Part shown: piece after piece, positions 2,372 to 18,100 of the stretch
Numbering within the stretch: position 1 is the stretch's first letter
Layout of the letters: the number at the start of each line of letters is the position of its first letter
Assembly (NCBI GenBank): GCA_013203315.1
Contig: JABMQJ010000005.1
Span: 1-49,885 of the forward strand
Direction of reading: 5' to 3'
DNA length: 49,885 nucleotides
DNA from: Candidatus Omnitrophota bacterium
GTDB taxonomy: Bacteria > Omnitrophota > Gorgyraeia > JABMRN01 > RBG-13-46-9
The notes under the pieces: model-generated
Told to the model about the DNA's origin: nothing
The model's database searches: none
Seen by the model: only the letters and a program-made list of their open reading frames with translations
Program-made: the position numbers and the translations under genes

Positions 2372-5300
2372 ATTTTACAGTTACAACACCTGAATGACCG
2401 ACCAAATCTCTCCTGAGCTGGCAATCATAACTGGCCGTTATGGAAACACCTAAATCCGTGTCCAATGAAAGCGATGCTCCGAGATCATGGGTATTTCGAT
2501 CGGGCCTGACTCCATATGTATCAAATGCTGTGCCTCCGCCTTCGTAAGTATTTCCAATTGATTGCTGCATCTTGCCTACAAAATCATGCAGCCATACCCA
2601 ACGAAATTCGGGCGTTACCTCATATCGTGACAATTTCAAGGGATAATTAACTTTAACGCCCACGCCGGATTGCACGAGATCGTAGTCCTGGCTGCCAATA
2701 TTAAGATTAAGCGCGCCTGCTTCGGTTTCTTTGTAGGCGTTCAGATGTAAGTGCATATACTGCATGGATCCTATAGGAGTGATTTCAAGCCCCTTCCCCT
2801 TGTTAAATGTATATCCCATGCCGAGGTATCCTGAATATTGCTGGCCATAATAATCCGAATTTGCCGTACGCCAAGCGTTCGCAATTCTAATGTTTCTCTT
2901 GCCAAGATATTTGTTAAGAGCAAAACTAAATGCGGCATCAAAATAAAGAGAATTCCAGTCATAGGTCCCGTACGTTGTCACCTGTGAGCTGTGAATTATT
3001 GTGCGATTGTTTTTGTTCTTTGAATTCACATAGCCGTTTACATAGCCGCCGCTTAATCCTACTTTCGAATTATGAGAAATTATCTCTCTATCTGCCCCGG
3101 CTGTAACCCCCCATAAGGCCGCTTTGTAACCGTCTATGCCGTTACTGCTATATTGATGCAGATAATTACCGAATCCTTCGCCCCAAATTTCTATGCCTTT
3201 TTTTGTTTCATCGCCTGTCGAGATTCCGGTTCTTGCCGTATTCTTTGCCAGTCTCACAACGCTCAAGCGCCTTTCAACGGTATTAATTGACTGATTCAGT
3301 GCCGAATAGCTCGCCTGAATCGTACCATTATCTACCGACGGATAATAAGTCGCCACGCTTGCGCCTATTTCACTCGCAGGAGAAGCTTCCAGGGTATTCA
3401 AAATATTAAGCATATCAGCCGTGGCATTAGGATCCGCACCTGCTGCTTCAAGCGCTGTTGCCGCAGCCGAGGCATCACTATCACCTAATGTTGAAGCTAT
3501 AGCAGCAAAAGAATTAGTACGGTTTGCAACTAATATAAGATCTCCTAACAACGAAGTTCCCGTAAATGTAACGAAGGTGCTGTTATCCGTTATTGACGGG
3601 ACGTTTACACCCCCGCCACCAGCTCCGTCAACGACCGTGTATGTTGTTCCGTCAGGTATAAAATCGCTGGTAACAGAAACGTTTACCGTACTTCCGGTAT
3701 TCACCACTGCATTGCCGGAGCCTACAACTTGGCCTGACGAAGTACCGGCTACGCCAAGCATAAGCGTTGTATTGTCGCCTTGCGTATAAACTCCGGATGC
3801 CCCGTCCAAAGTAAGCGTACTGGTTCCAATACTTAAAGTGCTTGTGTCGGCAAGAGTAAAATTACCGGTAATAGTCCTGTCAGCATTTACCGCGACCGTC
3901 GCCGCATTGTTAGCTGTGGTAGTGGTAGCGACAACGTCATGCCCAAGGGTAAATGTACCACCGTTTAGGTTAAGGGCCGCCAATCCAAAACCGGCAGCGC
4001 CGATAGTGCCGCCTGAAGTTGAAGTGCCAAGATAGGTTAATGTTCCCTGGTTGTTGGCGCTGGTTGTAACGGCCATGCTCGGTGACAGTCCGTCCGTAAC
4101 GTTTACTGTTCCGGTGCCTGAGAAAGTAAGCGCATCGCCTGTGGCAGAGGCATTCTGAATATTGAGCACACCCGCATTTACCGTGGTGGTCCCGGTGTAA
4201 GTGTTGGCGCCGGAAAGATTTGTTGTGCCTGCTGTGGTTTTGGTCAGGCCGCTGGCTCCGCCAAGTATGGCTGAAACATCGCCGGCCTGCATATCATAAT
4301 CCCCTTGGCTAATTAATGTGCCGCTAGTGCCGCTGATGGTACCGCCGGTCTGTTGAAGGATTATGACGGTTTCATCGAACGACTGAATGTTGAAAGTGCC
4401 GGAGCTTACGGCGACACTACTCCCATTCGCTATCTGGTCGGATGCCAGCAGCTTCGCAGTACCGCCTGCCACCGTTAGGTTGCCGTCGATCGCGCCAGCG
4501 GCTGCATTTAGGTCAAGCTCGCCCTCGCTTACCGTGGTGGTCCCGGTGTAAGTGTTAGCACCGGTTAAAGTGAGAGTGCCTGCGCCGTCTTTTGTGAGAG
4601 TGTTTGCGCCGGTGCCAATAATGCCTGATATAGTGGTATTGCCACCACCTCCAACTGTGAGACCAAAGGCACCGCCGGTCGCGCCGCTAAGTGTAAGAGT
4701 GCCGTCATCTGAGTTGATACGCGTAGCACTTCCTAGCGTTATATCCCCCGCCCAACTGTTATTGCCACTTATGTTCCTAAGCGCACCGGCGCCTTCAATA
4801 CCGGTGCCGTTTAAGGTTAATGCTTCGGCTCCTACTGTGATGTCTCCTTGAGTCTCAAGAGCTGCGCCATCCGTTACTGTAACGCCTCCTGCCGTGGTGC
4901 CTGTGGCAGTGGCCCTCCGAATATTGAGCACACCCGCACTTACCGTGGTAAGCCCGGTGTAACTGTTGCTACTGCCTATAGTGAAAGTGCCTGAGCCGTC
5001 TTTTGTGATAGTGCTTGCGCTGGGGGCAATACTAGATGAGCCAGCAATAGTGGTATTGCCACTGCCTCCTACTGTGAGAGCAAAGCCGTCGAGGAAGATG
5101 CTCACCCCGCTAAGTGTAAGAGTGCCGGAATCTGAGTTGATACGCGTAGCACTTCCTAGCGTTATCTGTCCTCCCCAATCGTTATCGCCACTTATGTTCC
5201 TAAGCGCACCGGCACCTTCGATACCGGTGCCATTTAAGGTTAATGCTTCGCCTCCTACTGCAATGCCTCCTTGAGTCTCAAGAGCCGCGCCATCCGCTAC

Positions 5301-6200
5301 TGTAGTACCCCAGGCCGTAGTGCCTGTGGCAGAGTCATTCCGGATATTGAGCACACCCGCATTTACCGTGGTGGCCGCGGTGTAGGTGTTGGCGCCGGAA
5401 AGAATCGTTGTGCCTGCTGTGGTCTTGGCCAGGCCGCTGGCCCCGCCAAGTATGGCTGAAACAGTGCCGGCCTGCATATTAAAATCCGAACTGCTGGTTA
5501 ATGTGCCGCTGGTGCCGCTGATGGTACCGCCGGTCTGTTCAAGTGACATGACCTTGTCATCGAACGACTGAATGTTGAAGGTGCCGGAGTTGACGACGAG
5601 GAACGCATCATCCGCTATCTGGGCGGATGCCAGCAGTTTCGCGGTACCGCCGGCCACCGTTAGGTCATCGGCGAGCGCACCACCGGCCGCATTTAGGTCA
5701 AGCTCGCCTGCGTTTACCGTGGTAAGTCCAGCGTAAGTGTTGACACCGGTTAAAGTAAGAGTTCCTGTGCCGTCTTTTGTAAGCCCACCCGCGCCACTAA
5801 GGGTCTGGCTAAGAGCGATACTTCCGGTGTTGGCTGTAAAGGTACGTGTGGCACCCATAATCATAGGGATATCGATCGTTTGGAGGCTGATACTATCGTT
5901 CGCGACGTTGCCGCCCAGCGTGATTCGGTTGCCTTCGAGCGTGAACGTGCTAGCGCCGGCATTAAAGGTGATGCCACCAAAATTCGTATCGGCGACAATG
6001 TCGTTGTTGGGCGTGAGTCTCGTAGCCCCGTCGAAAAACAATGCATCATTGGCAATGGGTGCTGCGCCGCCCCAGTTGTCGCCGGTATTCCAGTTATTAT
6101 TAAGCCCGCCGCCGTTCCAAGTTTTGTCTGCCGCAAAAGCTGTGGAGAAAAAAGAAAAGGCATATATAACCACTGTTGACACTGCTAATATTTTTCGCAC
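2361..6200 (-). CDS. Autotransporter (type Va) with autotransporter-associated beta-strand (PATR) repeats
   Basis: Signal peptide (AFA-A), repeated LTKxGxGTLTLxGxNTYTGxTTVxxGxL motifs, C-terminal beta-barrel (WGEGFG...VTVKYDF) ending in Phe. Confidence 0.92.
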   Translation of the reverse strand: MRKILAVSTVVIYAFSFFSTAFAADKTWNGGGLNNNWNTGDNWGGAAPIANDALFFDGATRLTPNNDIVADTNFGGITFNAGASTFTLEGNRITLGGNVANDSISLQTIDIPMIMGATRTFTANTGSIALSQTLSGAGGLTKDGTGTLTLTGVNTYAGLTTVNAGELDLNAAGGALADDLTVAGGTAKLLASAQIADDAFLVVNSGTFNIQSFDDKVMSLEQTGGTISGTSGTLTSSSDFNMQAGTVSAILGGASGLAKTTAGTTILSGANTYTAATTVNAGVLNIRNDSATGTTAWGTTVADGAALETQGGIAVGGEALTLNGTGIEGAGALRNISGDNDWGGQITLGSATRINSDSGTLTLSGVSIFLDGFALTVGGSGNTTIAGSSSIAPSASTITKDGSGTFTIGSSNSYTGLTTVSAGVLNIRRATATGTTAGGVTVTDGAALETQGDITVGAEALTLNGTGIEGAGALRNISGNNSWAGDITLGSATRINSDDGTLTLSGATGGAFGLTVGGGGNTTISGIIGTGANTLTKDGAGTLTLTGANTYTGTTTVSEGELDLNAAAGAIDGNLTVAGGTAKLLASDQIANGSSVAVSSGTFNIQSFDETVIILQQTGGTISGTSGTLISQGDYDMQAGDVSAILGGASGLTKTTAGTTNLSGANTYTGTTTVNAGVLNIQNASATGDALTFSGTGTVNVTDGLSPSMAVTTSANNQGTLTYLGTSTSGGTIGAAGFGLAALNLNGGTFTLGHDVVATTTTANNAATVAVNADRTITGNFTLADTSTLSIGTSTLTLDGASGVYTQGDNTTLMLGVAGTSSGQVVGSGNAVVNTGSTVNVSVTSDFIPDGTTYTVVDGAGGGGVNVPSITDNSTFVTFTGTSLLGDLILVANRTNSFAAIASTLGDSDASAAATALEAAGADPNATADMLNILNTLEASPASEIGASVATYYPSVDNGTIQASYSALNQSINTVERRLSVVRLAKNTARTGISTGDETKKGIEIWGEGFGNYLHQYSSNGIDGYKAALWGVTAGADREIISHNSKVGLSGGYVNGYVNSKNKNNRTIIHSSQVTTYGTYDWNSLYFDAAFSFALNKYLGKRNIRIANAWRTANSDYYGQQYSGYLGMGYTFNKGKGLEITPIGSMQYMHLHLNAYKETEAGALNLNIGSQDYDLVQSGVGVKVNYPLKLSRYEVTPEFRWVWLHDFVGKMQQSIGNTYEGGGTAFDTYGVRPDRNTHDLGASLSLDTDLGVSITASYDCQLRRDLVGHSGVVTVKYDF
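4155..5785 (-). repeat. Internal A-B-B'-A' duplications in the autotransporter passenger
   Basis: ~5340-5785 matches ~4155-4600 (GELDLNAA...QTGGTISGTSGTL...MQAG.VSAILGGASGL), and ~5045-5335 matches ~4630-4915 (DGAALETQG...EALTLNGTGIEGAGALRNISG...ITLGSATRINSD), with high nucleotide identity. Confidence 0.85.
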
Positions 6201-6331
6201 AAATTCCCTTTTATTATGATTTGGATATTATATTATCTACTATTAAGAGTATAGCGTATAAAATGCTCATACACAAATATTTTTTTTCTGCGTAGAACAA
6301 GCACAAGATGGTGTTTTTTGTTATCTGTATT

Positions 6332-7696
6332 TTAGAGGTGGTGGCGCTTTGTGTTGCCCCATATCTTCTTTTTTTCGAAGGCGAGGCGAAACGCTCCTAC
6401 AATGATAGGGTCAAATTGTGTGCCGGACTTTTCTTGAATCTCATTTATGGCAATTTCCGGAGATTTTCCGCGGCGGTAGGGTCTGTCTGTAGTCATGGCA
6501 TCGAATGCGTCACATACCGCGATTATCCTGGCCACAAGCGGTATTGCGCTACCCTTTAATTTTTCTGGATAACCGTTTCCGTCAAATTGCTCCTGGTGAT
6601 ACATGACTTCACGCACTACATCATTTAATTCCTTGATAGGTTTTAGAATAGTTGCGCCTATGGCGGGGTGTTCTTTAACTTTCTCAAATTCCTTCTTGGT
6701 AAGCTTGCCATGTTTATTCAGTATCTGGTCTGGAAGGCCTATTTTCCCGACATCATGCAAAAGAGCCGATATGTGTAAGGTTTCCCGAAAATTCTTATAG
6801 GCTTGAGCTTCCGGTATTACATCTAACTCATCGGCTACAGCGAGGCAATATTGAGTTACACGCTCTGTATGACCGTGCGTATAAGGATCTCTTGCGTCGA
6901 TGGCCGCCGCGAGTGCAATCGCGGTATGGACGAAGACGCGGTGCTCTCTTGTATATAAATCCTTGATTTCGTCGATCCGATATTGCAGGCTTTCGATAAG
7001 CTGGGCATTTGAAATCGCCATGGCCGCGTCATTGGCCAGCGTCATGAAAAAGCCTATCTCCTGCCGGGTGAATTTCTCCTTCGACATCTTATTGCCTAAA
7101 ACAAGAACGCCTATTAAACTCTTTTTGTAGTAAAGCGGTATACAGATATTTGCCTTCAGAAGGTCCATCTGCCTCAGGACAAGCTCTATTATTTCAGCAA
7201 GTTCCTCAAATTTCGCAAGCGATTCTTTATTTTTTAAAAGCGCAGCAATGTCTTCGTAGACTAAAACGCCGTTTTCCGAAATTACGTAATTTTTTCTTTC
7301 ATTAAAAATCTTAATAAGCGGATTCTCAAATGTCATGCGGATAAAGCCGACGGGAATTTTGACACCGCCCTCGCCTTTACTATCGATGAGGATAAATGAG
7401 TTTTTCTGTTCCTTATATAAGAGGATTGCGGTGTGCGTAATTCCGAGTTGTTCGTCAATGACATTTACGATCATTTTTATCAGGCGCTCGGGCTTTTTGA
7501 AGCGTATCATGAGCCTTGAGGCATTTTCCAGGAAAACCTGATAATCTTTTTCAGGTTTCGGCCACTTCTTTATGTCTTCGGGGTTTATAGGTATAAGTGC
7601 GCCTTCTGTGTCGTTTAGTTTATCTATCATCCACTGTTGAACTTTCGACCAGCCCCTGCGATTTTCGTCGCCGCTTTTTTTAAGCTCCCTATACAT
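6332..7696 (-). CDS. GAF + HD-GYP domain protein (cyclic-dinucleotide phosphodiesterase)
   Basis: ARDPYTHGHTERV, LLHDVGKIG, HQEQFDGNGYP, ARIIAVCDAFDAMTTDRPYR motifs; N-terminal GAF (GVLVLGNK...LANDAAMAISNA). Confidence 0.92.
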   Translation of the reverse strand: MYRELKKSGDENRRGWSKVQQWMIDKLNDTEGALIPINPEDIKKWPKPEKDYQVFLENASRLMIRFKKPERLIKMIVNVIDEQLGITHTAILLYKEQKNSFILIDSKGEGGVKIPVGFIRMTFENPLIKIFNERKNYVISENGVLVYEDIAALLKNKESLAKFEELAEIIELVLRQMDLLKANICIPLYYKKSLIGVLVLGNKMSKEKFTRQEIGFFMTLANDAAMAISNAQLIESLQYRIDEIKDLYTREHRVFVHTAIALAAAIDARDPYTHGHTERVTQYCLAVADELDVIPEAQAYKNFRETLHISALLHDVGKIGLPDQILNKHGKLTKKEFEKVKEHPAIGATILKPIKELNDVVREVMYHQEQFDGNGYPEKLKGSAIPLVARIIAVCDAFDAMTTDRPYRRGKSPEIAINEIQEKSGTQFDPIIVGAFRLAFEKKKIWGNTKRHHL

Positions 7697-8060
7697 TTTT
7701 ACCTTCTTTCACGTGTGCCTTAACTGCCGATTCTAGTTCCTCTAACACGAGTGGTTTTGTAATATATTTGGAGGCTCCTAATTTTTTTGCAGCTTCCATT
7801 TTATCCTGATCTTCGACGGCGCTTACCATTATTACTTTAACATTTTTATCTAGTTTTCTTATCCTCTCTAGGGTCTGGATACCGTCCATTTCCTTCATTT
7901 TAATGTCTAATAGTATTAAATCGGGTTTTTCTTTTCGTAGTATTCTTAATGCTTCGGAACCGCCCAGGGCCACAAAAACCCGGAAATTTCTTTCTTCAAA
8001 AAAATTCTTCACAAAATCGCAAATGTCTATTTCATCGTCAACAACAAGGATCTTTATCAT
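7689..8060 (-). CDS. Single-domain response regulator (receiver)
   Basis: ILVVDDE, DLILLDIKM, IMVSA, YITKP. Confidence 0.93.
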   Translation of the reverse strand: MIKILVVDDEIDICDFVKNFFEERNFRVFVALGGSEALRILRKEKPDLILLDIKMKEMDGIQTLERIRKLDKNVKVIMVSAVEDQDKMEAAKKLGASKYITKPLVLEELESAVKAHVKEGKNV

Positions 8061-8072
8061 ATCAGTGCCTCC

Positions 8073-8456
8073 TTAGAAGCTCTCGGAATATGCCTTATTG
8101 ACCAGTTCCTCCAACTCTCTTAATGAATTAAGTGGCTTGTCAAGATATCCATATGCGCCTGCGTTTTTCAGACGGGCTTTTGTTTTTCCTGCATCGTCAA
8201 AAGCGGTAACAAAGATCACCTTGGTTTTTGGTTGTTTGGATTTTACCATTGCCAATACCTCATCACCGCTTATACCCGGCATCTTTAGATCTAACACGAT
8301 TACATCGGGCTTTTTATCATTAATCAATTCTATCCCCTGCACGCCCTTGGATGCGGTATTTATTTCGTATCCACGAAGCTCAAAATACTCTTTAAGCATA
8401 CTCGTAAATTCTATTTCGTCATCTATCGCTACTATTTTTGGTTTTTTATCTGCCAT
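8073..8456 (-). CDS. Single-domain response regulator (receiver)
   Basis: IVAIDDE, DVIVLDLKMPGISG, IFVTAF, YLDKP. Confidence 0.93.
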   Translation of the reverse strand: MADKKPKIVAIDDEIEFTSMLKEYFELRGYEINTASKGVQGIELINDKKPDVIVLDLKMPGISGDEVLAMVKSKQPKTKVIFVTAFDDAGKTKARLKNAGAYGYLDKPLNSLRELEELVNKAYSESF

Positions 8457-8472
8457 TTGACTTACCTCTTTT

Positions 8473-10602
8473 TTACGCTTTTGATTTCACCTCGAGAGGA
8501 AATTCCAGCGTAAATGTCGTCCCTTCGCCTACCTTGCTTTTAACGGATATCTTGCCGTGGTTGCGTTCTACAACCTGGCGTACTATAAAAAGACCGAGCC
8601 CTGTTCCCTTGCCCGGATCCTTCGTAGTGTAGAATGGATTGAATATCTGTTCGAGTTTATTTTCAGGGATACCATGCCCTGTATCCTCGATATCTATGAA
8701 AATCTTATCGTCGGCTTGCCTTGCTTTTATAGTAATTTTGCCTCTCTCATTTATTGCCTGTGCCGCGTTACGAATCAAATTGAAGAATACTTCCTGAATT
8801 TGTTTTTTATCACCGGTAAGCAAAGGAAGGCTTTCTTCTATATCTTTTACAATGTCTACCTTATCTAGTTTTAATTCATAACCGACTAAAGCCAAAACTT
8901 CATCTATTTCATCTTTTACATTAATATTTGCAGAAATTATTCCCTTTGACGGCTTCGCAAAGCTAGAAAGCCTCTTTGTTATGGCGGTTGCCCTATCGGT
9001 CTCGTGTATAACCTTCCCCATAATGTTCTGGGCTTTTTCTAAAAGTTCTCCCTGTGATTTATCTTTATAAAGTCCGTCTTTTATGTTTAACAAAAAAGCC
9101 TCGCATTGACCCCTGGCAATTCCCAGCGGATTACAGATCTCGTGATTTATGCCAGCTGAGAGTGTTCCAATAACCGCCATTTTCTCTTTCTGAGCGGCCT
9201 CAGCCTGCGTCTTTCCTAATTCATCAAACATTTCAGCGTTATTAATTGCTATTGCAAGTGTTCGCGCCAGAGGAACAAGTATGTCCATGTCATCCTGCGT
9301 GTAATTCTCATCGGACTTCTTTTTCCCCAGGGTAAGTACGCCTACCATGTCCCCTTGTAATGTCATAAGCGGAATAGCGAGTTCAAACTTCAATCGATTC
9401 ATGTCTTCAATGATTTGTTGCGGCATATGCAATTCTTTTTCATGCGGCTTTATTGAAAGGTATGTCTTTGCTCTCGAGAGGAATGTTATAAGCGTATTCT
9501 CTTTCCCCAAAGCAATATTTCTTTCCGCTATACCTTGTGAAGCTACAAGGTCATACTTACCTTTATCTTCATCTAGAAGAAGAATTCCGCAGCTTTGGAG
9601 CTTCATAATATCTGAGAGCTTACTTACTGTTAACCGAACAAGTCTATTTAAGTCCAAAACGGTCAGAACTTCACTTGTAAACGTCTTCAGTAATTCTTTG
9701 TAGTTATATTTCTTTTGAAACAGGAATTTATCTGTTACGTTTATAAGGAAATTCTCGATTCTTCGCAGCGCTAGCATAATTATTATGCCACTTATTGTTA
9801 GGCCTATTACCTTTCCTCCGGTCCCCGTACCCCTAAATATATATTCCTGTATAACCAATGTTGGCAAAAGCAACATTGCGAACACCGAAGCCAAAAGACC
9901 CGCAAACACAAGGGTCTTCTTTATGATGACTTCGATGTCGAGTAATTTATACGCGACTATTGCGTAAGCAAACATGGCAACATAAATAAATCCTACAACG
10001 TTTAAATATGGAGGAAATGAAAGCTTGAAAAATAGCAAATAGTTACTTGAGCAACCCACATATCCTATAATCATTCCTATTAAAATATACGAGATTTGAC
10101 TTCTCAAAATACCTTCTGCTTTTCTAAATGAAGAATATAGCAACACACATGCATACACCGCATATCCGACAAACGTTATCAAGAATAAGTAATATAGCAT
10201 CCCTGCTGTACCCCAATATTTGAATATTGAAACAGGGCGCATATCTTTTATAAATAGTGGGCTAAATGAGAACGCCGTAAAGAATAATGCTATTAAATAT
10301 CCAAAATTTAATATCTTTTTCTTATTTAGTTTTAGGAAAGCGGTAACGAAATGCAAAAAACAAACAGGTATAAAAATTGCTCCGATATGTAGAACTCTAA
10401 ACCAGTAAAGACACGCTTCTTTATTACCTTGATTAAGTGGCCAAAAAATGTACCCGACACTCCATACGAAAACTGCCAAATTGAAAAGAGCATACCGCTG
10501 ATTTACCTCTGATTTTTTATTATGATAATAGACAAATAGGCCCAACGTTATTGCGGCAATTGCATTTATTAAACCTGTAATCGAAAAATAATAATAGTTC
10601 AT
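8473..10602 (-). CDS. Sensor histidine kinase: N-terminal multi-TM (HisKA_7TM-like) sensor, GAF, HisKA, HATPase_c
   Basis: About 9 hydrophobic segments in the first 280 aa, H-box AGINHEICNPL, N-box QVFFNLIRNA-like, G1 DTGHGI, F-box FNPFYTTK, G2 GTGLGL. Confidence 0.93.
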   Translation of the reverse strand: MNYYYFSITGLINAIAAITLGLFVYYHNKKSEVNQRYALFNLAVFVWSVGYIFWPLNQGNKEACLYWFRVLHIGAIFIPVCFLHFVTAFLKLNKKKILNFGYLIALFFTAFSFSPLFIKDMRPVSIFKYWGTAGMLYYLFLITFVGYAVYACVLLYSSFRKAEGILRSQISYILIGMIIGYVGCSSNYLLFFKLSFPPYLNVVGFIYVAMFAYAIVAYKLLDIEVIIKKTLVFAGLLASVFAMLLLPTLVIQEYIFRGTGTGGKVIGLTISGIIIMLALRRIENFLINVTDKFLFQKKYNYKELLKTFTSEVLTVLDLNRLVRLTVSKLSDIMKLQSCGILLLDEDKGKYDLVASQGIAERNIALGKENTLITFLSRAKTYLSIKPHEKELHMPQQIIEDMNRLKFELAIPLMTLQGDMVGVLTLGKKKSDENYTQDDMDILVPLARTLAIAINNAEMFDELGKTQAEAAQKEKMAVIGTLSAGINHEICNPLGIARGQCEAFLLNIKDGLYKDKSQGELLEKAQNIMGKVIHETDRATAITKRLSSFAKPSKGIISANINVKDEIDEVLALVGYELKLDKVDIVKDIEESLPLLTGDKKQIQEVFFNLIRNAAQAINERGKITIKARQADDKIFIDIEDTGHGIPENKLEQIFNPFYTTKDPGKGTGLGLFIVRQVVERNHGKISVKSKVGEGTTFTLEFPLEVKSKA

Positions 10603-10603
10603 A

Positions 10604-11833
10604 TTATTTTATCTTTTGCAAAATTGCTACTGAATCTTTACCATGAAAGGCAAAACTATTATTTAATATGGCGTTCACTTTTCCCTCTTCTGGTTTTGTA
10701 ACAACGCTTAGATTGTTACATTTGGGATCTATTACGCTAAAATTAATAACAGGTGGGATTATATTATGTTTTATCGAAAGCATAGAAGTAGCTAGCTGTA
10801 TTGCCCCTCCACCTGCTAATGCGTGGCCTACAGATGCCTTGATTGAAGTAGTCTTCATTTTTTTATTATCAAATATTTTTTTTATCGCCATTGCCTCAAA
10901 GATATCTGCCGTTACGCCCCCTAAGCCATGTGCATTTATATAGGTTATATCTTTTATATTCATTTTTGCATCTTTTAAGGCAGCTTTTATTGCCCTTGAG
11001 GCCTGTTCTGCATTTCGTTCATGATGAAGCATATTATGGGCCTCACACGTAGTGCTAACACCTGATACTTCGCTATAAATCTTTGCTTTTCGCTTTACTG
11101 CATGCGCATATTCTTCCACTACAAATACAGCCGCGCCTTCCCCTAATACCATGCCATCTCTATCGTTGCTAAATGGTCTGCATGCACCTGCTGGATCGCT
11201 ATTTTTCTGTGAAAGTATTCCAAGTGCGCTTAATGTTGCATAAGGAAGGGGGCACAATGGAGCATCCCCGCCTCCAACAAATACCACTTCTACATCGTTT
11301 GTTCTAATTTTCCGCAGAGCATATGCCAAAGCGCTATATACAGATGAGCAAGCCACGGAAAAAGTCTCACTAGGGCCTTTTGCACCTAATTCGACAGAGA
11401 CTTCGCCTGAATTAGCATTAGCTAATCCTATAGCAGCTGTAAACTTATGTATAGAATTTAAGCCTTTTTTAAATAAATTCATCTGTTGATCCAGAACCCA
11501 GGATAACCCTCCTAAAGCAGTGCCCATCATAACATGTACATGTTCGGCATTTTCTTTGTTTATAATAAATTGAGAGTCCTTCTGTGCCAATTTCGCTGCA
11601 CTTACTGTTAATTGTGTAGAGCGATCCATGGCTGAAGATCTGTGATTATTAATAAATTTAGTAGGTTCGAATTCTTTTATTTCTGCTGCCATCTTAGAAG
11701 GATAGTCTGATGTATCAAAAAAAGAAATCTCGGTAACGCCAGATTTACCTGCAATTAAATTTTGCCAATAATTTTCATGCCCTATCCCTAGTGGAGAAAT
11801 AATTCCTATACCTGTTATCACTGCTCTTCTCAT
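10604..11833 (-). CDS. FabF-like beta-ketoacyl-ACP synthase (ketosynthase)
   Basis: MRRAVITGIGIISPLG start, catalytic Cys (VACSS), His (INAHG), His (SIKASVGH), CRPF..RDGMVLGEGA, NSFAFHG. Divergent from housekeeping FabF. Confidence 0.88.
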   Translation of the reverse strand: MRRAVITGIGIISPLGIGHENYWQNLIAGKSGVTEISFFDTSDYPSKMAAEIKEFEPTKFINNHRSSAMDRSTQLTVSAAKLAQKDSQFIINKENAEHVHVMMGTALGGLSWVLDQQMNLFKKGLNSIHKFTAAIGLANANSGEVSVELGAKGPSETFSVACSSVYSALAYALRKIRTNDVEVVFVGGGDAPLCPLPYATLSALGILSQKNSDPAGACRPFSNDRDGMVLGEGAAVFVVEEYAHAVKRKAKIYSEVSGVSTTCEAHNMLHHERNAEQASRAIKAALKDAKMNIKDITYINAHGLGGVTADIFEAMAIKKIFDNKKMKTTSIKASVGHALAGGGAIQLATSMLSIKHNIIPPVINFSVIDPKCNNLSVVTKPEEGKVNAILNNSFAFHGKDSVAILQKIK

Positions 11834-11845
11834 AGTAAACCTATT

Positions 11846-12628
11846 TTACGCCTTCCTTCCAGTGCAATATTCATACATGCCCCACTGGTCAACGCTTATA
11901 ATGACATCTCTAAAATTTAAATTTATCATCATTTCACGCAAATACTCCGGGGTTCTAAAAAACATATTCCAGCTTTGTCCGTCTTGTTTTTTCCCTATCT
12001 TACTCATTAGTTTCTTGCTTGGGTTATCGCTTTGTGCTGTAAATAATATAAGTCCATTTTTTTCCAAGTGGCTGTATGCATCCTTCAACATGTCTTCAAA
12101 AGTAGCATCTGATAACATCTCAAAAAAACCTGTTGTAATAATTATGTTCGGTATCCATGAAATTCTTCTTGATAGCGCTTTTAGATGAGCTAATTTAAAA
12201 ACATTGGCTTTCGCATATCTGATAGGCCTTTTTCCAGCTAATGCTTTCCCGAAGTTAATAGAACGTTTGTCAGAATCGAGACATAGGACATCAATTTTAT
12301 CCTGATTATAGGTGGTAAGTACATCGACAATATAGCGAGCAGGACCGGAGGCAATATCTAATATCTTGCTTTTTTTATTTAACAGTATATTATTTGCTAT
12401 TTCATTTCGTAGGATTTTCATAATGATGTCTTTTTTGCGGCGAGTTGCTTTTACGGATGGCAGGTTTAATAATACACCATCAACAAATTTTCCGACGCGA
12501 GTAACGCCTTTTGGTCTATTCCTATACATATGATCTATATTAAGCCCGGAATCAGCTTTTCCACCTATAACATTTCTTCCCAATTTACTAATGGCCATTA
12601 TAGATTTTATAATTTTTTGAGTAATCAT
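11846..12628 (-). CDS. Class I SAM-dependent methyltransferase-like protein (resembles the YnbC C-terminal / Methyltransf_20 family)
   Basis: ILDIASGPARY motif I; N-terminal ADSG..IDHMYRNRPKG...GKFVD..LLN, recalled as typical of the YnbC-type domain; TGFFE motif. Confidence 0.72.
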   Translation of the reverse strand: MITQKIIKSIMAISKLGRNVIGGKADSGLNIDHMYRNRPKGVTRVGKFVDGVLLNLPSVKATRRKKDIIMKILRNEIANNILLNKKSKILDIASGPARYIVDVLTTYNQDKIDVLCLDSDKRSINFGKALAGKRPIRYAKANVFKLAHLKALSRRISWIPNIIITTGFFEMLSDATFEDMLKDAYSHLEKNGLILFTAQSDNPSKKLMSKIGKKQDGQSWNMFFRTPEYLREMMINLNFRDVIISVDQWGMYEYCTGRKA

Positions 12629-12629
12629 T

Positions 12630-13838
12630 TTATTTATAAAAAAACTTTTTTAGGCTTTTTAATAATCTGTCAATATCTTCTTTAGTGTGTTCGCTTGTTA
12701 TTTGAAATCTAATCCTGCAAGCATCTATTGGTACTGCCGGCGGTATTATAGGAATAGCTATAATACCTTCTTTCTTTAATAGCATGCTTAATTTGCACGT
12801 TCTATCCATTGATCCAATAATAAGTGGGATTATGGGTGTAATGTCCTCTGGTACAGGTAAATTTAAATTTATTAAATTTGTACGAAAATATATAACATTG
12901 TCTTTAAGTTTTTGGACATAAGTTTTGTTGTTCTTTATTTCCTGTAAAGACGTATGCGCAGCAGCCATCGACATAGCTGGTAAACTCGAAGTAAATATCA
13001 ATTCATGTGATTTCATCTTTATCAAATCTATATTTTTCCTTGATGAAAGTATATAGCCACCGTTTGAACCAAGTGATTTATTCATTGCGCCTGTTAAGAT
13101 ATGGATATCTTTTGCGGTTAAATTGCAATGTTCCAAAATCCCATATCCATTTTTGCCAATTGTTCCTAATCCATGAGCATCATCTACTACAAGAATTGCC
13201 TTATGCTCTTTGGCAATAGTGGCAATTTTGTTTATTTTTGCAATATTACCGTGTTGACTAAAAAGACTTTCTGTTATTATCATTTTTTTTATTGCATTAT
13301 CATGCATTTTTATTTTATTGTATAAATCATTAACATCGTTGTGTTCAAATTTTATTGATTCTATGCCATGGAGTTTAAAAGCTTTTATAAAACTTATATG
13401 TAAATATTTATCAAAAAACACCTTAACGTTATCTTCTGCAAATGCTGTTATGACTGCGCTATTCGCCATATATCCACTGGATAATACAATGCCAGCTTCA
13501 TAATTATAAAACTTTTTTAATGCATCTGCCAATAATTCATGATATAAAGTTCCGCCTGTAACTGCAAACGACGCACCTGTTCCTATGCCATATTTTTTTG
13601 CTGCCTCAATGGCGCTGTTAATAACTTTGCGGTTTTTTGATAGACCTAAATAATTGTTTGTACTAAAAAGGATATAATTCTTACCTTTCAAGCGAACCTC
13701 AACAGGTCTTGTGCCAGGTTCATAATAATCATAATAAAACCAGAGGTTTTCATTTTTTAATTTAGCGTATTGATTTAATAGCTCTTTTATCTTCTGCCAT
13801 TTATCTACGCCCTTGTGTACATTAGAAATTAGATTCAT
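12630..13838 (-). CDS. PLP-dependent alpha-oxoamine synthase family enzyme (BioF/Kbl/SPT/CqsA family)
   Basis: STNNYLGLS, SSGYMAN, FEHND, ESLFS.HG, VDDAHGLG, PLP lysine in GAMNKSLG, FTSSLP, PPAVP...RIRF. Confidence 0.9.
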   Translation of the reverse strand: MNLISNVHKGVDKWQKIKELLNQYAKLKNENLWFYYDYYEPGTRPVEVRLKGKNYILFSTNNYLGLSKNRKVINSAIEAAKKYGIGTGASFAVTGGTLYHELLADALKKFYNYEAGIVLSSGYMANSAVITAFAEDNVKVFFDKYLHISFIKAFKLHGIESIKFEHNDVNDLYNKIKMHDNAIKKMIITESLFSQHGNIAKINKIATIAKEHKAILVVDDAHGLGTIGKNGYGILEHCNLTAKDIHILTGAMNKSLGSNGGYILSSRKNIDLIKMKSHELIFTSSLPAMSMAAAHTSLQEIKNNKTYVQKLKDNVIYFRTNLINLNLPVPEDITPIIPLIIGSMDRTCKLSMLLKKEGIIAIPIIPPAVPIDACRIRFQITSEHTKEDIDRLLKSLKKFFYK

Positions 13839-13849
13839 TTAAAACCTCG

Positions 13850-14044
13850 TTACTTCTTATTTGACTTCTCTTTGTCCGTGATCCACTTGTCGACGCTTGT
13901 TTTTTTAAATCGCCACTTTGAACCTACCTTGAAACCGGGAATTTTACCCTCCTGGGCGTGTTTATAGATCGTAACTTTTTTCATCCGGAGGTATTTGGCG
14001 ATTTCGTCGAGGGTCATAAGAGTAGGTTTGTTATTTGGTACCAT
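13850..14044 (-). CDS. Small excisionase/MerR-like helix-turn-helix protein (HTH_17 type)
   Basis: LMTLDEIAKYLRMKKVTIYK...GKIPGFKVGSKWRF; AAGGAAGG SD. Confidence 0.9.
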   Translation of the reverse strand: MVPNNKPTLMTLDEIAKYLRMKKVTIYKHAQEGKIPGFKVGSKWRFKKTSVDKWITDKEKSNKK

Positions 14045-14120
14045 GCAACACCTTCCTTATGTTAATACTTTTTGTTATGCCTTAATATGCTATGATACAG
14101 GCTGATATGCAGAGATATAA

Positions 14121-14149
14121 AGTATACATAGTAAGTTGAAATTTGTCAA
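14121..14149 (-). promoter_or_regulatory. sigma70-type promoter of the HTH-synthase-kinase operon
   Basis: Minus strand TTGACA-17 nt-TATACT, ~75 nt upstream of the HTH start. Confidence 0.75.
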
Positions 14150-14165
14150 GTGAGGCAGAAAAAAC

Positions 14166-14420
14166 CTAGAGCAGGTTCCAGTAGGCGTTTGTTTCGGTAA
14201 GTATGAGGTCTGATGTGGTTTGGATTGTCTCGTTTTCGGTAAGTTCCTTGATAAAATTGCCTTTGGATATTACGTTTGACATGGCTTCCCGGCATTTAAA
14301 TGCATGGATCAGGGATTCAATCTCACCTATAGCCTTTTTATTGAACAATTCGACCATAAGGCGCGTCTTATTATGGCTTTTTCTTCCGGTTATTATTATA
14401 ATTTTCATACAGAACACCAC
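14166..14420 (-). CDS. Small hypothetical protein (start possibly 14408, MKIIIITG...)
   Basis: ORF only, fills an otherwise empty gap; no recognised motif. Confidence 0.35.
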   Translation of the reverse strand: MVFCMKIIIITGRKSHNKTRLMVELFNKKAIGEIESLIHAFKCREAMSNVISKGNFIKELTENETIQTTSDLILTETNAYWNLL

Positions 14421-14550
14421 CCTAAGATGTGCGAATATTAATCTAACTTTATATTAACTCAACTATAAATCAACTTTATCATATTTAGCCACGCTAATGG
14501 TAACCATATGGTAACAATACCGTAATAGACGCGTAAACTCGCATGAAACT

Positions 14551-14579
14551 TTGACTTTTCCCTCATCTTTCATTATACT
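14551..14579 (+). promoter_or_regulatory. sigma70-type promoter for the VanZ-like gene
   Basis: TTGACT-17 nt-TATACT, 30 nt before the ATG. Confidence 0.6.
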
Positions 14580-14608
14580 TATAACAAGAAAGGATAATAC
14601 AAAACAAA

Positions 14609-15127
14609 ATGAAACGGCTTTCCTGGATAACTATATGTGTAGGTATATATATTATTATATCTGCCTCCTTTATGCTTCAATTCAGAGATTTCCTCGTAAG
14701 CACTATTGGCGATCAAGCGATGAAGCTTGGATTTTTCTTTATATTTCTGCTTCTTCTTCTAAATTATGCGCATTATATCATCTTAACAGGGCTACCGGCA
14801 TATAGAATCAGGCAGTCTATCTATGTTTTTGCGTTGGCTACTGTACTCATCCTGCTGCAGACATACTTTGCCGAGCGGTTGCATGTCATAGAATACGGGC
14901 TTTTGGGGTATCTTGCTTTAAGGGACTTTTCCGGGAAGGGATTGCGCGGTACAATATCCGATTGCATTAAACCCGCGCTTCTTTTTGTACTATGGGTTAG
15001 CATGCTAGATGAAGGATTCCAGTGGATTCTACCCTACAGGACCGGTGACATAAGGGATGTTATAACAAATATGGCAAGCGGCTTTTTAGGCGTGATTCAA
15101 TTCTCTATTTTCCGTGGTAGAAATTAA
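14609..15127 (+). CDS. VanZ-like family membrane protein
   Basis: ERLHVIEYGLLG, LDEGFQWILPYRTGDIRDVITN motifs; multiple TM segments. Confidence 0.8.
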   Translation: MKRLSWITICVGIYIIISASFMLQFRDFLVSTIGDQAMKLGFFFIFLLLLLNYAHYIILTGLPAYRIRQSIYVFALATVLILLQTYFAERLHVIEYGLLGYLALRDFSGKGLRGTISDCIKPALLFVLWVSMLDEGFQWILPYRTGDIRDVITNMASGFLGVIQFSIFRGRN

Positions 15128-15157
15128 CACAAACTTGAGAAGAAAGCAACCTCTGCA

Positions 15158-18100
15158 TTAATAATCGATGATAGTGCCCGAGAACCAGTCTTTGATTTCC
15201 GCGTATTCTTCGTCGTCGATAACAAACCAGTCGTCTTCCCAGAAGAAACCACCCGCATAACCGTTATTTTTTAACGTGTTAAGCTTATAGGTAAACGAAG
15301 TCGGTTCCAGTTCGCCGGCAAGCACAGGCTTATCCAGTCCGAGATTTGCGGCCGGATAGTTAAGCGGCGTAAAGCCTTCGTGATTGTTGTAGTAATGGAA
15401 TTGGTATAAATCAAGCCCGCAATCCGTCCAGTAGGTAACAAGGTCATCCCTGTTTCTGCTTCCTACAGTCGTGACCGCATCGGGTGCCTTGGAATGAATC
15501 AAATCCACAAAGTCTCTCACAAAGTCCTGCCTGGACGGCATGGAAACAGCCGTCGCGTATTCAGGCTCGTTTATAATATCCCAGGCATATATCGAATCAT
15601 GCCCCGCAAATTGATCGAAGAAACCGTCAAATAAATCGAGAAGCGCCTGTTTTTTAGCAGGGTCCGTAAAGAGTCCGGGATGTTCGCCCACTTCATATTC
15701 CCCTTCAAAGCTCACGCCATCGGCTATGCCATAATCAAACAGTGTCGGCATGACTTTTATATTAAAAGCCTCTGCTGCATCTAAAAGGGCCTGCATATCT
15801 TCATAAACCTGGCCCGTAAAACCTAGCGGGGTTCCGGATGCGTCAAACCTAATACTTGACCGCAAATCGCAGAAGAGGAATAGTCTTACAAAGTCACCCT
15901 TTCGTGAATCGAGTTTCGTATAAAGCGCTTCTAAGTCTGTCGAATAGCCTATATGATATGTCGAACCCGGAACTAGCCCAAGGTCGTAACCATAATTCAT
16001 CCACGCCAGATTTACGCCTTTCAGGAAGCTCGTATCCGGTATTCTTCTTTGACGAAGAACGTTATCTGCGTCATAGATTTCAATTTCGCCGTTCGAGAGC
16101 GTCTTTACGGAACCCGTAAAAGTTCCGTTTTCATAATTGAAAACCGTAAACGTGCCGTCTGCTTCCGTATAGCTGTTTACAAGAAACGTAGTGCCGAACT
16201 TTTTATATGTCGCAACCCTGCCTACTGCATTTTCACCGACACAGTAACTATCGGAGACCCGGTTAATGCTTCCCGCGTCTACGGCGAGTGAGTTCACATA
16301 ATTATTAATCGTCTCGTATGCATCAATATCCCCGGGTGAACCCGTCAAAACAGTACTGGAAACGCCCGTCAGGAAACACGTGGGTAAGCCATCGGGATAA
16401 GTTAAAATTGCGCCATCCGGTTTTACTATTTCTTTTATCAGACTGTCATCGTCATATTTAACAACGTTAAAATACGGTTTGTTTTGACCGTCAAAGTCGT
16501 ATCCGGGAACAATCTCGCCGTTTGCACCGAACATGTTGCCCGGAAGTGTAATTGAAAAACCAAAATTAGGCGCTATGCCATTGACGATGTCGGTTACGCC
16601 ATCCGGAAATATAAGTGGCGCCCGGGGCGTATAAACGTATCCAGGCAAGGTTTTATTCATGTCACCTAGGATTGTGTTTTTATTTCGCATGTTTTCATCT
16701 ACGTCTTTATCGGATAGGGTTTCCACCGTACCGGTAGCATATTCATAAGTCTCCAGATTATCGTATGCCTCTGCCGTTATCTCGCCGCCGTTGATAGAAG
16801 ATACTATGCTCGGATCCCAGGAAATATTTTCCAGCGTGTAAATCGGATCCCCGGGGGCCTGGCCGTTTTCATACAGGTAAATACTGAGCGTACCGTCTTC
16901 TACTTTCGTTTTAACAATATAGGTGGTGTTATCATTTAAATTTACGTTAAGCGGGATTTGTCCATAAACAGACTCGTGTGTTTGGTAATCGTAGGACCGA
17001 TGATAAAAATACGCGGTACCGTTGTAATAGCTCAAGTTGATATATTCATACAAAATATCGGTTTGCCCTTGAACTTGGTAATAGAAAGATTTGGAAGCGG
17101 CGTTCCCGTCAAATGTAAACTCCGCGGTGTGAACAGGGGCGCCCTGCAAAGGGTTGTTATAGTCGGTGTAAAATCTCTTGGATTCGTTGTATTCGCCGCT
17201 TGAAGACGGATCTACCGCTAAACCGGCGTTCTGGCCGCTTATAGTAAAAAGTGGGTCCCATTCGGCGTCGGAGAGTGTATACGCAGGCGTACCCGGCCTT
17301 GGTTGGGAAGCTTCGTAAATATAGACGTTTACGTTCGAGCCTTCCCACAGGTATTCTATCGTGTAATCGGTATCTTTGTTTATCGTTATGTCTAATGCCT
17401 GGGTCTCGATTTCCCGCGCGCCGGTGGTGTAATCGTAGGAGTAGTAGGTCATTTTCGGTGTTTGGCCGCGTAGATTAAAAGTAAGATACACGTACCTATC
17501 GCCGGGTTCATAGTAATAAGCGTGCGCGTAGACGGAAGGATACGCTTTCGAGCTATCGAGATTAAGGCTCGCTTTCAGATAAGGATTGTTCGCACGATCT
17601 ACGCGCGAGGTGCCGCCATAACTCTGATAAAAATTTAAATAATTATATGAGAATCTTTTAGAAACCGCGAGATTCTGTTCATCGGTAATTCTGTATTCAA
17701 AATATATGGATGAGCCGTCGGGCAGAATTACTTTTTCGAGATTGCCGGTAAAATCGCCTGAATTGTAATAAATCAAAACGGAACCTGGCGGAAATGCGGG
17801 CGTTACGGATATGAGGTTTCCATCGGCGTCGTAAGCGTACTCGGTAACTTCGCCGTTGGGTTTTTCTTCTCTCACCAACCTGTTATCCGTATTGTATTTT
17901 TTTACTGTTCCGTCTGCCAGAATAAGTTCTTTAAAAATTAAATCCCCGTTTCCGTCATATAAATATGTAACCGTTTCATTCTCAGTTGCCCTTCTGCACA
18001 CCAACATATTTCCTGTCGCGTCATCGTATTCATACACTTCCGCATCAGCATATGCCTCTTGCGCTATTTCGCCGCCATATATAGTGGAAGAAAACGAGGG

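Follow-up and report, generated by a model that had tools for sequence, protein, structure and literature searches.

A putative replaceable cartridge of lipid-type enzyme genes and a kinase sensor head in a conserved operon of Candidatus Omnitrophota

Introduction

The pheromone loci agr of staphylococci (agrB, agrD, agrC and agrA) and comQXP of Bacillus subtilis have hypervariable cores and employ ribosomal peptides as signals. In Xanthomonas, the Rpf system of the diffusible signal factor (DSF), which is fatty-acid-derived, consists of the crotonase RpfF, the sensor kinase RpfC and RpfG, a receiver (REC)-HD-GYP protein; to our knowledge, no swappable cartridge has been described for Rpf. Hypervariable regions and allelic types are mentioned for agr (PMC6834553), CqsA/CqsS of Vibrio and LqsA/LqsS of Legionella work with alpha-hydroxyketone autoinducers (PMC3376566, PMC3285556), and in both cases a pyridoxal-phosphate (PLP)-dependent enzyme of the oxoamine-synthase fold makes the lipid-like signal (PMC3376566). 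In the Phc system of the Ralstonia solanacearum complex, the methyltransferase PhcB makes a methylated fatty-acid signal that is read by the kinase PhcS, two signal types are described, and the trees of PhcB and PhcS split the strains by signal type, independently of phylotype (PMC11960443). Here we describe a locus of Candidatus Omnitrophota, in which genes for lipid-type enzymes adjoin the sensor part of a histidine kinase gene, and compare it with these systems. The window, as we call the whole analysed stretch of 49,885 nucleotides, is an entire contig of a 1.5-Mb, 97% complete genome.

Open reading frame (ORF) calls and Pfam/NCBIfam searches outline a minus-strand run of nine genes (14420 to 6332), in which the gaps from the helix-turn-helix (HTH) gene to the HD-GYP gene measure -8 to 16 nt, so that these genes appear to form a single tight operon. 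Block 9960-13845 of this run, comprising three lipid-type enzyme genes and about 212 sensor codons of the kinase gene, is probably a replaceable cartridge, whose sensor head may read a hydrophobic ligand. Sequence comparison indicates that different species carry different cartridges in the same frame, and that the frame (HTH gene; kinase C part, two receivers and GAF-HD-GYP protein) is conserved across Candidatus Omnitrophota. The features are listed below in operon order.

14166..14420, minus strand: orf84, a small protein of unknown family (ORF; G+C content at third codon positions, GC3, 0.506)
13850..14044, minus strand: HTH_17 DNA-binding protein, 64 aa; conserved 5' flank (Pfam HTH_17, E 1.5e-16)
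12630..13838, minus strand: PLP-dependent alpha-oxoamine synthase of the BioF/Kbl/serine-palmitoyltransferase family; gene 1 of the putative cartridge (Aminotran_1_2, E 1.8e-47)
11846..12628, minus strand: Methyltransf_20 S-adenosylmethionine (SAM)-dependent methyltransferase; gene 2 of the putative cartridge (Pfam PF12147, E 2e-30)
10604..11833, minus strand: FabF-like beta-ketoacyl synthase; gene 3 of the putative cartridge (Pfam ketoacyl-synt N and C domains)
9967..10602, minus strand: kinase residues 1-212, the seven-helix membrane sensor head; variable (Pfam HisKA_7TM, residues 14-223)
9907..9966, minus strand: likely joint, the conserved motif YAIVAYKLLDIEVIIKKTLV, kinase residues 213-232, at the onset of conservation
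8473..9906, minus strand: kinase residues 233-709, with two conserved membrane helices, GAF, phospho-acceptor and ATPase domains; flank (Pfam GAF_2, HisKA, HATPase_c)
8073..8456, minus strand: receiver 1, single-domain, with a DLKMPG stretch (Pfam Response_reg, E 5e-25)
7689..8060, minus strand: receiver 2, single-domain (Pfam Response_reg, E 5e-31)
6332..7696, minus strand: GAF-HD-GYP protein, probable cyclic di-GMP (c-di-GMP) phosphodiesterase; last gene of the operon (HD_5, E 3.6e-39, and GAF)

The kinase, a protein of 709 aa with the H-box GINHEICNPL, scores 62.3 bits with HisKA_7TM (PF16927; cut-off 28.6) and 100.2 bits with HATPase_c, and is on these domains assigned to the HisKA_7TM sensor histidine kinases. 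The gene of the GAF-HD-GYP protein overlaps that of receiver 2 by 8 nt. The protein carries HDVGK at residue 314 and GYP at residue 375 within its HD_5 domain, and is thus assigned to the HD-GYP family of c-di-GMP phosphodiesterases, with the activity predicted.

Comparison with described systems

The initial annotation had read the locus as an agr-like swap of signal-making genes together with their cognate sensor domain. The layout agrees with this: as in agr and comQXP, the putative signal-making genes and the N-terminus of the kinase sensor co-vary, the flanks are conserved, and the break falls inside the kinase gene, leaving a variable block of enzymes and sensor N-terminus between conserved flanks. 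The analogy does not extend to the chemistry or to the level of variation. The signals of agr and comQXP are ribosomal peptides, whereas the slot here holds lipid/polyketide-type enzymes of changing families, and Pfam searches detected neither AgrB nor AgrD in the operon. Their variants are within-species alleles, while those seen here lie between species and genera; their output is a DNA-binding regulator, and here two bare receivers and an HD-GYP enzyme stand in its place.

The first enzyme of the window falls into the same superfamily as CqsA and LqsA, but is closer to serine palmitoyltransferase and BioF, reaching 194.5 bits with the CqsA/LqsA-type model NF005526 against a cut-off of 428. 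Its sensor is a HisKA_7TM head, unlike CqsS and LqsS, a methyltransferase and a ketosynthase are added, and the window has no LuxU/LuxO or LqsR partner. With Phc, compared by description, the locus shares a methyltransferase next to a histidine kinase, co-variation of synthase and sensor, and downstream receivers (PhcR and PhcQ in Phc). On the other hand, dozens of enzyme sets occur here, the output of Phc is the regulator PhcA and not c-di-GMP, and none of the 69 matches to the methyltransferase of the window bears the name PhcB. The locus resembles Rpf in pairing a membrane sensor kinase with an HD-GYP c-di-GMP phosphodiesterase as output, but its HD-GYP protein carries a GAF instead of a receiver domain, the receivers are separate proteins, and the window lacks a crotonase, which is found in one relative (L074). 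The system of the window appears to be a member of none of agr/comQXP, Cqs/Lqs, Phc and Rpf.

No paper on this system was found in literature searches, whose coverage excludes subscription journals. Within these searches, Omnitrophota and quorum sensing are co-mentioned, among others, in PMC13641062, where the mention is a reference-list entry; the matches for HisKA_7TM concern archaeal and eukaryotic kinases, and no paper was found that names Methyltransf_20 or PF12147, or that joins Omnitroph* with histidine kinase and c-di-GMP.

A variable slot between conserved flanks

Relatives were collected in two ways. A first search covered 41 related genomes, found kinase orthologs in the same taxonomic family and provided 14 loci for comparison; a pattern scan of species genomes returned 134 relatives, of which 80 loci were examined, nearly all labelled either as Omnitrophota or as uncultured Planctomycetia. 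The collections hold one genome per species, and the variation described here is variation between species and genera. The frame recurs across the 80 loci, with the HTH gene upstream of the kinase in most of them. Family orthologs are 66-78% identical to the window in the kinase C part and 72-81% in the HTH protein, and over the compared loci the identities are 65-78% for receiver 1, 60-75% for receiver 2 and 67-81% for the HD-GYP protein; two further loci of the same class have C parts at 51-54%. The first 230 kinase residues are 25-38% identical across the compared loci. Orf84, for which Pfam and NCBIfam searches gave no match, belongs to the conserved upstream flank in some relatives: by tblastn, L034 and L037 have a counterpart (50-60% identical) ahead of the HTH gene, while in other relatives matches of 30-41% identity lie elsewhere within the locus.

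The transition within the kinase is sharp. In the six closest full-length orthologs, residues 1-212 are 20-35% identical to the window, against 74-77% for the C part, and identity to six family orthologs, taken in 30-residue windows, stands at 0.20-0.31 before it climbs to 0.75-0.83 at residues 211-240. With ten orthologs aligned, the first invariant columns are at Y213 of YAIVAYKLLDIEV (coordinates 9966-9928), within the motif named by the initial annotation, and upstream of it the sequences are barely alignable. A conserved HTH gene and kinase C-terminus around variable enzymes, the arrangement that the initial annotation had expected in relatives, is what the compared loci display. Against L119, a locus with a different kinase backbone, identity is 0.77-0.80 up to residue 230 and 0.27 by residues 231-260. 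Because residues 213-232 are common to all and lie between both crossovers, they are the likely joint, and a GC3 breakpoint lies near it (9955-9982). These comparisons point to exchange by recombination at two fixed joints, one at the HTH gene's 3' end, the other at kinase motif 213-232.

The sensor head also occurs apart from this frame. In a large protein collection, heads of the window's type (40-68% identical) are attached to varied outputs, including GAF kinases, short kinases without GAF, a 1115-aa hybrid kinase and GAF-GGDEF proteins, and in 24 of the 29 top sensor matches the N part is closer to that of the window than the C part is. In P0239, P0241, P0242, P0245 and P0248, a seven-helix head of this type, 41-44% identical, is joined to GAF and GGDEF (diguanylate cyclase) domains in place of a kinase.

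For a census of the slot, the genes between the HTH gene and the kinase were called in 48 loci, and the 194 products were clustered and named by Pfam. The slot ranges from 69 to 9375 nt and holds 0 to 10 enzyme genes of changing families, in line with the earlier prediction of differing enzyme sets at orthologous slots. Among the 47 other HTH-bounded loci, the set of the window is shared by L121 and L122 only; L119 has it without the ketosynthase, and in L117 the synthase was missed by the ORF caller. Oxoamine synthase is absent from all 80 examined loci, four of which have a distant methyltransferase match. Recurrent contents are a methyltransferase alone, an HMG-CoA reductase alone, a fatty-acyl reductase with a GMC oxidoreductase, an SRPBCC protein with a dehydrogenase, and sets of 7-10 genes with ketosynthases, carrier protein, dehydratase, reductase, amine-oxidase-like flavoenzyme and nitroreductase. 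Some slots additionally contain a FadL/TodX channel, a LuxD-like acyltransferase-methyltransferase fusion, a crotonase or a thioesterase. In L052, L077 and L091, the cartridge begins with such a FadL/TodX-type channel of the outer membrane, a type that serves hydrophobic compounds.

Even within the genus, the cartridge differs: the slot of genome G001 (L027) has eight called ORFs and a ninth, a ketosynthase, and this family, at 34% identity, is the only one in common with the window. Two slots of 1.4 kb (L053 and L063) had no gene called, though L053 shows a weak methyltransferase match, and both were dropped from the enzyme-set statistics. In L099 (9645-11464, a metagenome-assembled genome of Candidatus Tantalella remota), the HTH gene is followed after 50 nt by a 525-aa kinase that aligns from window residue 224, leaving a slot without enzymes and a kinase without the seven-helix head. 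In this single case, the enzymes are absent along with the head, and the gap is bounded by the same two joints.

Metagenomic contigs agree with the assembled block. Independent contigs of X4, a second sample from the same study, run across 9605-10080 and 12527-14274 with 0 differences; both joints are thereby spanned, and the block is therefore not an assembly chimera. No alternative cartridge joined to the same frame was seen in the assembled contigs of the window's own-study runs, from which rare variants drop out. Contigs that match the frame and the HTH side, with a DNA identity of about 88-94%, occur in the runs X5 (aquatic) and X6 (marine) of two other studies; there, summed depth over 10136-13697 is mostly near zero, the uncovered part giving no evidence either way.

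A few observations were made in passing on contigs near the joint. Of the 80 contigs, 16 end within the kinase gene, 11 of these between residues 160 and 320. At 400-800 nt from the anchor, nine contigs end upstream against two downstream, and a further group of 6 contigs ends 800-1200 nt downstream. With numbers this small, there is no more than a hint that assembly forks may arise here, from strains whose frame is common but whose cartridges differ. The depth of bin 10136-10409 in runs X1 and X4 exceeds that of the adjacent bins by a factor of two to five, and one contig departs at 10325, which suggests that another organism has a short stretch of similar sensor head; the marine run X6 has one 340-nt contig on 11557-11896, with 15 differences.

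Sensor heads and enzyme sets

Loci with a relative of the window's oxoamine synthase tend to bring the rest of the block along. All five examined loci of its clade keep the methyltransferase and an adjoining seven-helix kinase, and three further ones are too short to show their neighbours. L121 and L122 have the same three enzymes in the same frame, with N parts 44-50% and C parts 63-65% identical to the window. L117, L119 and L123 carry synthase and methyltransferase, without ketosynthase, on another kinase backbone; the N parts of L117 and L119 are 66-68% identical to the window and a short piece of L123 is 72% identical by tblastn, while the C part is at 40% in L119 (294 columns) and at 54%, over only 97 columns, in L117.

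Across the 2016 pairs formed by 64 complete kinases, N and C identity are nearly uncorrelated (r 0.108), and whatever the class of C identity, the median N identity stays at 0.22. Pairs with a C identity of 0.84-0.91 have N identities of 0.19-0.34, and the sole pair at a C identity of 1.00 is a duplicate record. The opposite pattern, an N part more alike than the C part, was found in four of 946 pairs; L033 and L065, both with reductase and GMC oxidoreductase, reach 0.74 in the N part and 0.52 in the C part. The family of the enzyme adjacent to the kinase is shared by 10 of 20 pairs at an N identity of at least 0.4 and by 6% of 870 pairs below 0.3, a count that leaves out L117.

Phylogenies of the two kinase parts conflict, as the initial annotation had anticipated. 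In the tree of the C part, the window groups with L027 and L031 (Shimodaira-Hasegawa-like approximate likelihood ratio test, SH-aLRT, 97) within its taxonomic family (90; next larger clade 96). In the N tree, it groups with L117 and L119 (97) and then with L121, L122 and L040 (96), the HMG-CoA-reductase loci stand together, and the GMC-oxidoreductase loci form two neighbouring groups. The N tree thus groups by enzyme type and the C tree by taxonomy. In approximately unbiased (AU) tests, each data set rejects the grouping of the other: the sensor-type clade is rejected by the C-part data (log-likelihood difference 291, p-AU 5e-54), and the clade of the window's family, a group fixed beforehand from genome taxonomy, by the N-part data (log-likelihood difference 665, p-AU 3e-6).

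Base composition of the block

A recount reproduced exactly the four 60-mer GC counts (11, 15, 32 and 25 of 60) on which the proposal of an AT-rich cassette had been built. The block as a whole has a GC content of 0.343 against a genome mean of 0.430 (standard deviation 0.023), which lies within the lowest 0.04% of 6931 equal-length sliding windows over the 1.5-Mb genome and makes it the third-lowest distinct GC region. GC3 is 0.248 in the oxoamine synthase, 0.314 in the methyltransferase and 0.268 in the ketosynthase gene; these genes rank 2nd, 4th and 15th lowest among 1109 crude genes (mean 0.452, standard deviation 0.050), and the HTH gene has 0.538. A two-breakpoint fit to third positions over the whole operon places the edges at 13785 and 9955 (GC3 0.509, 0.274 and 0.427), close to the edges of 13845 and 9960 claimed for the block. 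A third break lies at 7694, where GC3 goes from 0.390 in the kinase C part and receivers to 0.485 in the HD-GYP gene. The low-GC3 stretch ends at kinase codon ~208-215, and the break coincides with the onset of protein conservation.

The low GC3 is not explained by membrane helices, whose naturally T-rich codons the initial annotation had named as a caveat. Amino-acid-matched GC3 z values are -8.09 for the oxoamine synthase, -5.00 for the methyltransferase, -8.38 for the ketosynthase and -4.84 for kinase residues 1-212, against +1.44 for the HTH gene and +0.72 for the conserved membrane stretch 213-290, and the hydrophobic genes of the genome show no GC3 deficit (r = -0.03).

The step is not confined to the window. 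Of 64 kinases, 60 have a GC3 that is lower in the N part than in the C part (mean difference -0.174), the enzyme genes are lower than the kinase C part in 41 of 44 loci, and L119 displays the same step on its different backbone (N part 0.27, C part 0.46); the GC3 of the sensor head tracks that of the host weakly (slope 0.37, 64 kinases). Low GC3 thus marks the cartridge as a class across the slot and, being general, gives no date for an import into this genome. The step that was taken earlier as a mark of exchange is therefore real, yet silent on the time of import, and the case for exchange rests on trees and mosaic identities, not on composition. Two general causes of the AT-richness may be considered, namely a shared AT-rich pool of traded cartridges, or divergence of the cartridges to a degree that spares them the homologous recombination, and any GC-biased conversion, of the flanks.

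Enzymes of the cartridge and proposed mechanism

The first enzyme, with 162.7 bits for Aminotran_1_2 (cut-off 19.7), is on domain evidence a member of the alpha-oxoamine synthase superfamily. It scores below the cut-offs of the bioF, Kbl, serine palmitoyltransferase (SPT) and CqsA-type models, the bioF, Kbl-related and SPT models scoring higher than the CqsA/LqsA-type one, and among solved structures it comes closest to bacterial serine palmitoyltransferase and to BioF/Kbl (E 1e-61), with CqsA at 6e-28. H147, D219, H222 and K254 are invariant in its 15-member clade, and by analogy to BioF we take them to be the catalytic and PLP residues. The clade is small: 14 proteins are 52-69% identical to the enzyme, the next ones, of housekeeping type, reach at most 38%, and a pattern scan of species genomes found one member, L117. 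In 401 sampled genomes, the best match outside its own genome is 37-40% identical and of housekeeping type.

The methyltransferase has 69 related clusters at 50-81% identity, of which the few with a name are mostly from Omnitrophota. Its predicted model (mean predicted local distance difference test, pLDDT, 88.9) has the class I small-molecule methyltransferase fold, with 3ocj as the top match (template modelling score, TM, 0.74); the sequences of solved structures give one weak match, a cyclopropane-fatty-acyl-phospholipid synthase (E 0.008). Since the fold matches are generic small-molecule methyltransferases, no substrate can be named. PF12147 is above its cut-off in one of 14 named control genomes, that of Escherichia coli. 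The ketosynthase scores 387.9 bits with the fabF model TIGR03150 (cut-off 493.75) and 380 with PRK07314 (cut-off 387), and has C162 in VACSS, a GH motif at 336 and AHGLGG, which was read by eye. Below the FabF cut-offs and with active-site Cys and GH kept, it is likely a specialised condensing enzyme and not a housekeeping FabF.

Oxoamine synthases join an amino acid and an acyl thioester to an alpha-amino ketone. In the proposed mechanism, the window's enzyme would catalyse this condensation, the ketosynthase would supply or extend the acyl chain, and the methyltransferase would methylate the product, which would be a hydrophobic small molecule, probably a methylated long-chain alpha-amino-ketone or related amino lipid. 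Such a product could reach the seven-helix head within the membrane and act as the ligand of the matched head; the kinase would then phosphorylate the two receivers, which may act on the GAF-HD-GYP enzyme and hence on c-di-GMP. 'Signal synthases', the name given to the enzymes by the initial annotation, is in this sense one that we infer. We lean slightly towards a sensor head that reads a ligand made by its own cell. Action of the molecule between cells is conceivable, with the balance of our judgement against it. Omnitrophota are very small, possibly host-attached cells. A phylum-wide cartridge language, in which private lipid synthases and matched heads are traded across species and kinase backbones within a shared c-di-GMP frame, as the lipid equivalent of peptide pherotypes by which cells would recognise kin or partners, is a still more tentative idea, and we regard it as doubtful.

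Several related proteins were seen beyond the locus. P0014 (597 aa) is a fusion of PilZ to HTH_17 and oxoamine synthase, and P0168 (383 aa) a fusion of PilZ to a Methyltransf_20 enzyme; they suggest a c-di-GMP feedback onto signal synthesis. In another Omnitrophota genome (G031:C19:55019-58363), an oxoamine-synthase-like gene (31% identical) stands directly upstream of a paralogous seven-helix kinase gene (27%), a second and more distant pairing of the two families.

Weighing of the evidence

A number of points weigh against the cartridge as a unit of enzymes and sensor, or temper the evidence for it. In L040, a sensor from the same clade as that of the window (48% identical) is found next to a different set of enzymes, and L040 and L056 share most enzyme families and are 78% identical in the C part, with N parts at 22%; same-family enzymes may, of course, make different products. 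The ketosynthases of L121 and L122 reach only 39% identity to that of the window, and L117, L119 and L123 lack this enzyme; together with the mismatch of L040 this means that the cartridge itself is mosaic. With C identity allowed for, N identity correlates with the similarity of the enzyme sets in a partial Mantel test (r 0.168, p 0.001). The test covered the 44 loci in which the slot is bounded by the HTH gene and holds one or more called genes, L117 and L119 being left out as partial; since the loci are related, the Mantel and Wilcoxon p values overstate the support. The trees were 'quick' maximum-likelihood IQ-TREE runs of 40 rows (C) and 41 rows (N), hand-picked from 66 aligned, leaving out most loci with less than 53% C-part identity, and L040 joined the AU-tested sensor-type group after inspection of the tree. 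Finally, the predicted GC3 break inside the kinase gene holds in the operon-wide fit and is weak within the kinase alone, where the best break (codon 208, coordinate 9976; GC3 0.288 before, 0.405 after) falls short of significance (permutation p 0.083) and has a wide support interval (10285-8623); its position rests for that reason on the operon-wide fit and the protein alignment. The enzyme-sensor link is moderate, not absolute, and the idea that synthases and sensor are exchanged as one unit is supported by the conflict of the half-trees and the recurrence of the set on other backbones, without being a rigid rule.

Matched variation of enzymes and sensors would be expected as well if the enzymes made an envelope lipid and the head sensed this lipid, or the state of the membrane, in the same cell, with c-di-GMP adjusting envelope or lifestyle genes. 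Serine palmitoyltransferases, the makers of sphingolipid bases, are the closest relatives of the first enzyme among solved structures, other cartridges hold a PlsC-type acyltransferase, HMG-CoA reductase, fatty-acyl reductase and desaturase-like enzymes that are typical of bulk lipid pathways, and a Pfam scan of the window's operon shows no encoded exporter. However, structural lipid pathways are usually conserved within families, and here nearly each species differs and L099 has none; a FadL/TodX channel in some cartridges also fits traffic across the envelope. Both arguments are suggestive only, and we hold such lipid homeostasis to be unlikely, though it is the strongest of the competing explanations. 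A recent one-off import from an AT-rich donor, with low GC as the donor's signature, would agree with the place of the block among the three most AT-rich regions of the genome and with the overall AT-richness (GC 0.35-0.36) of the contigs that bear the closest sensor heads, L119 and L123. It is improbable in view of the GC3 step in 60/64 kinases and 41/44 enzyme sets across the phylum and on the backbone of L119, and of a sensor GC3 that follows that of the host only weakly; the nearest enzyme relatives are 57-80% identical in protein, which leaves no recent donor in sight.

The remaining explanations place the movement elsewhere or dispense with it. Kinase sensor domains generally evolve faster than catalytic cores, and with a median N identity of 0.22, near saturation, the head and its neighbour genes might be thought to have evolved fast in place, under diversifying or relaxed selection and with drifting composition. 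This can hardly be reconciled with N parts that are more alike than the C parts (L033/L065, 0.74 vs 0.52; window/L119, 0.68 vs 0.40), with enzyme families that are unrelated between loci, which point mutation cannot yield, or with AU tests that reject congruent trees, and we give it next to no credence. Alternatively, the flanks might have moved, the kinase C part being homogenised by gene conversion among paralogous kinases while the N part and the enzymes are old residents. Recombination at the joint alone is silent on which side moved, and many Omnitrophota genomes do have several paralogous seven-helix kinases, some of them in tandem. Yet the C tree recovers the taxonomic family of the window, and the HTH, both receiver and HD-GYP proteins are at the identity level of the C part, so that the frame behaves as vertically inherited and the cartridge as the odd piece; a movement of the flanks is thus very improbable. 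The replaceable cartridge remains the reading we prefer.

Implications

If the enzymes do make ligands for matched heads, the locus would offer a natural library of dozens of orthogonal signal-receptor pairs with one output, in a phylum without a cultured model, and the ligand of the orphan HisKA_7TM kinase family would become directly testable. The hypervariable synthase-sensor loci known from the peptide pheromones of Firmicutes would then extend to lipid chemistry and c-di-GMP control. The locus also shows an exchange point for receptor heads, at residue 213. Even under homeostasis, a head that co-varies with neighbouring enzymes helps to pair kinases with ligands.

Flanking regions

Scans of 6000-15200 were uninformative: the 32 promoter-like and 6 terminator-like sites found compare with 30.7 and 6.6 expected, respectively. 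The top promoter-like site (14149-14121, minus strand, 11/12) lies upstream of the HTH gene and was not counted, as the scan is at chance level. Just downstream of the operon, window positions 2361-6200 encode an autotransporter of 1279 aa with five PATR repeats, in a GC-rich region (0.55-0.56 over 4001-6000, against 0.43 for the window) whose anomaly is the opposite of that of the cartridge. Upstream of the locus lies the gene of an RHS-repeat protein of 1776 aa (15158-20488); a relative, 47% identical over the first 557 residues, is found downstream of the HD-GYP gene in L029 (L017), and weaker RHS-protein matches occur downstream of the HD-GYP gene in several other loci.

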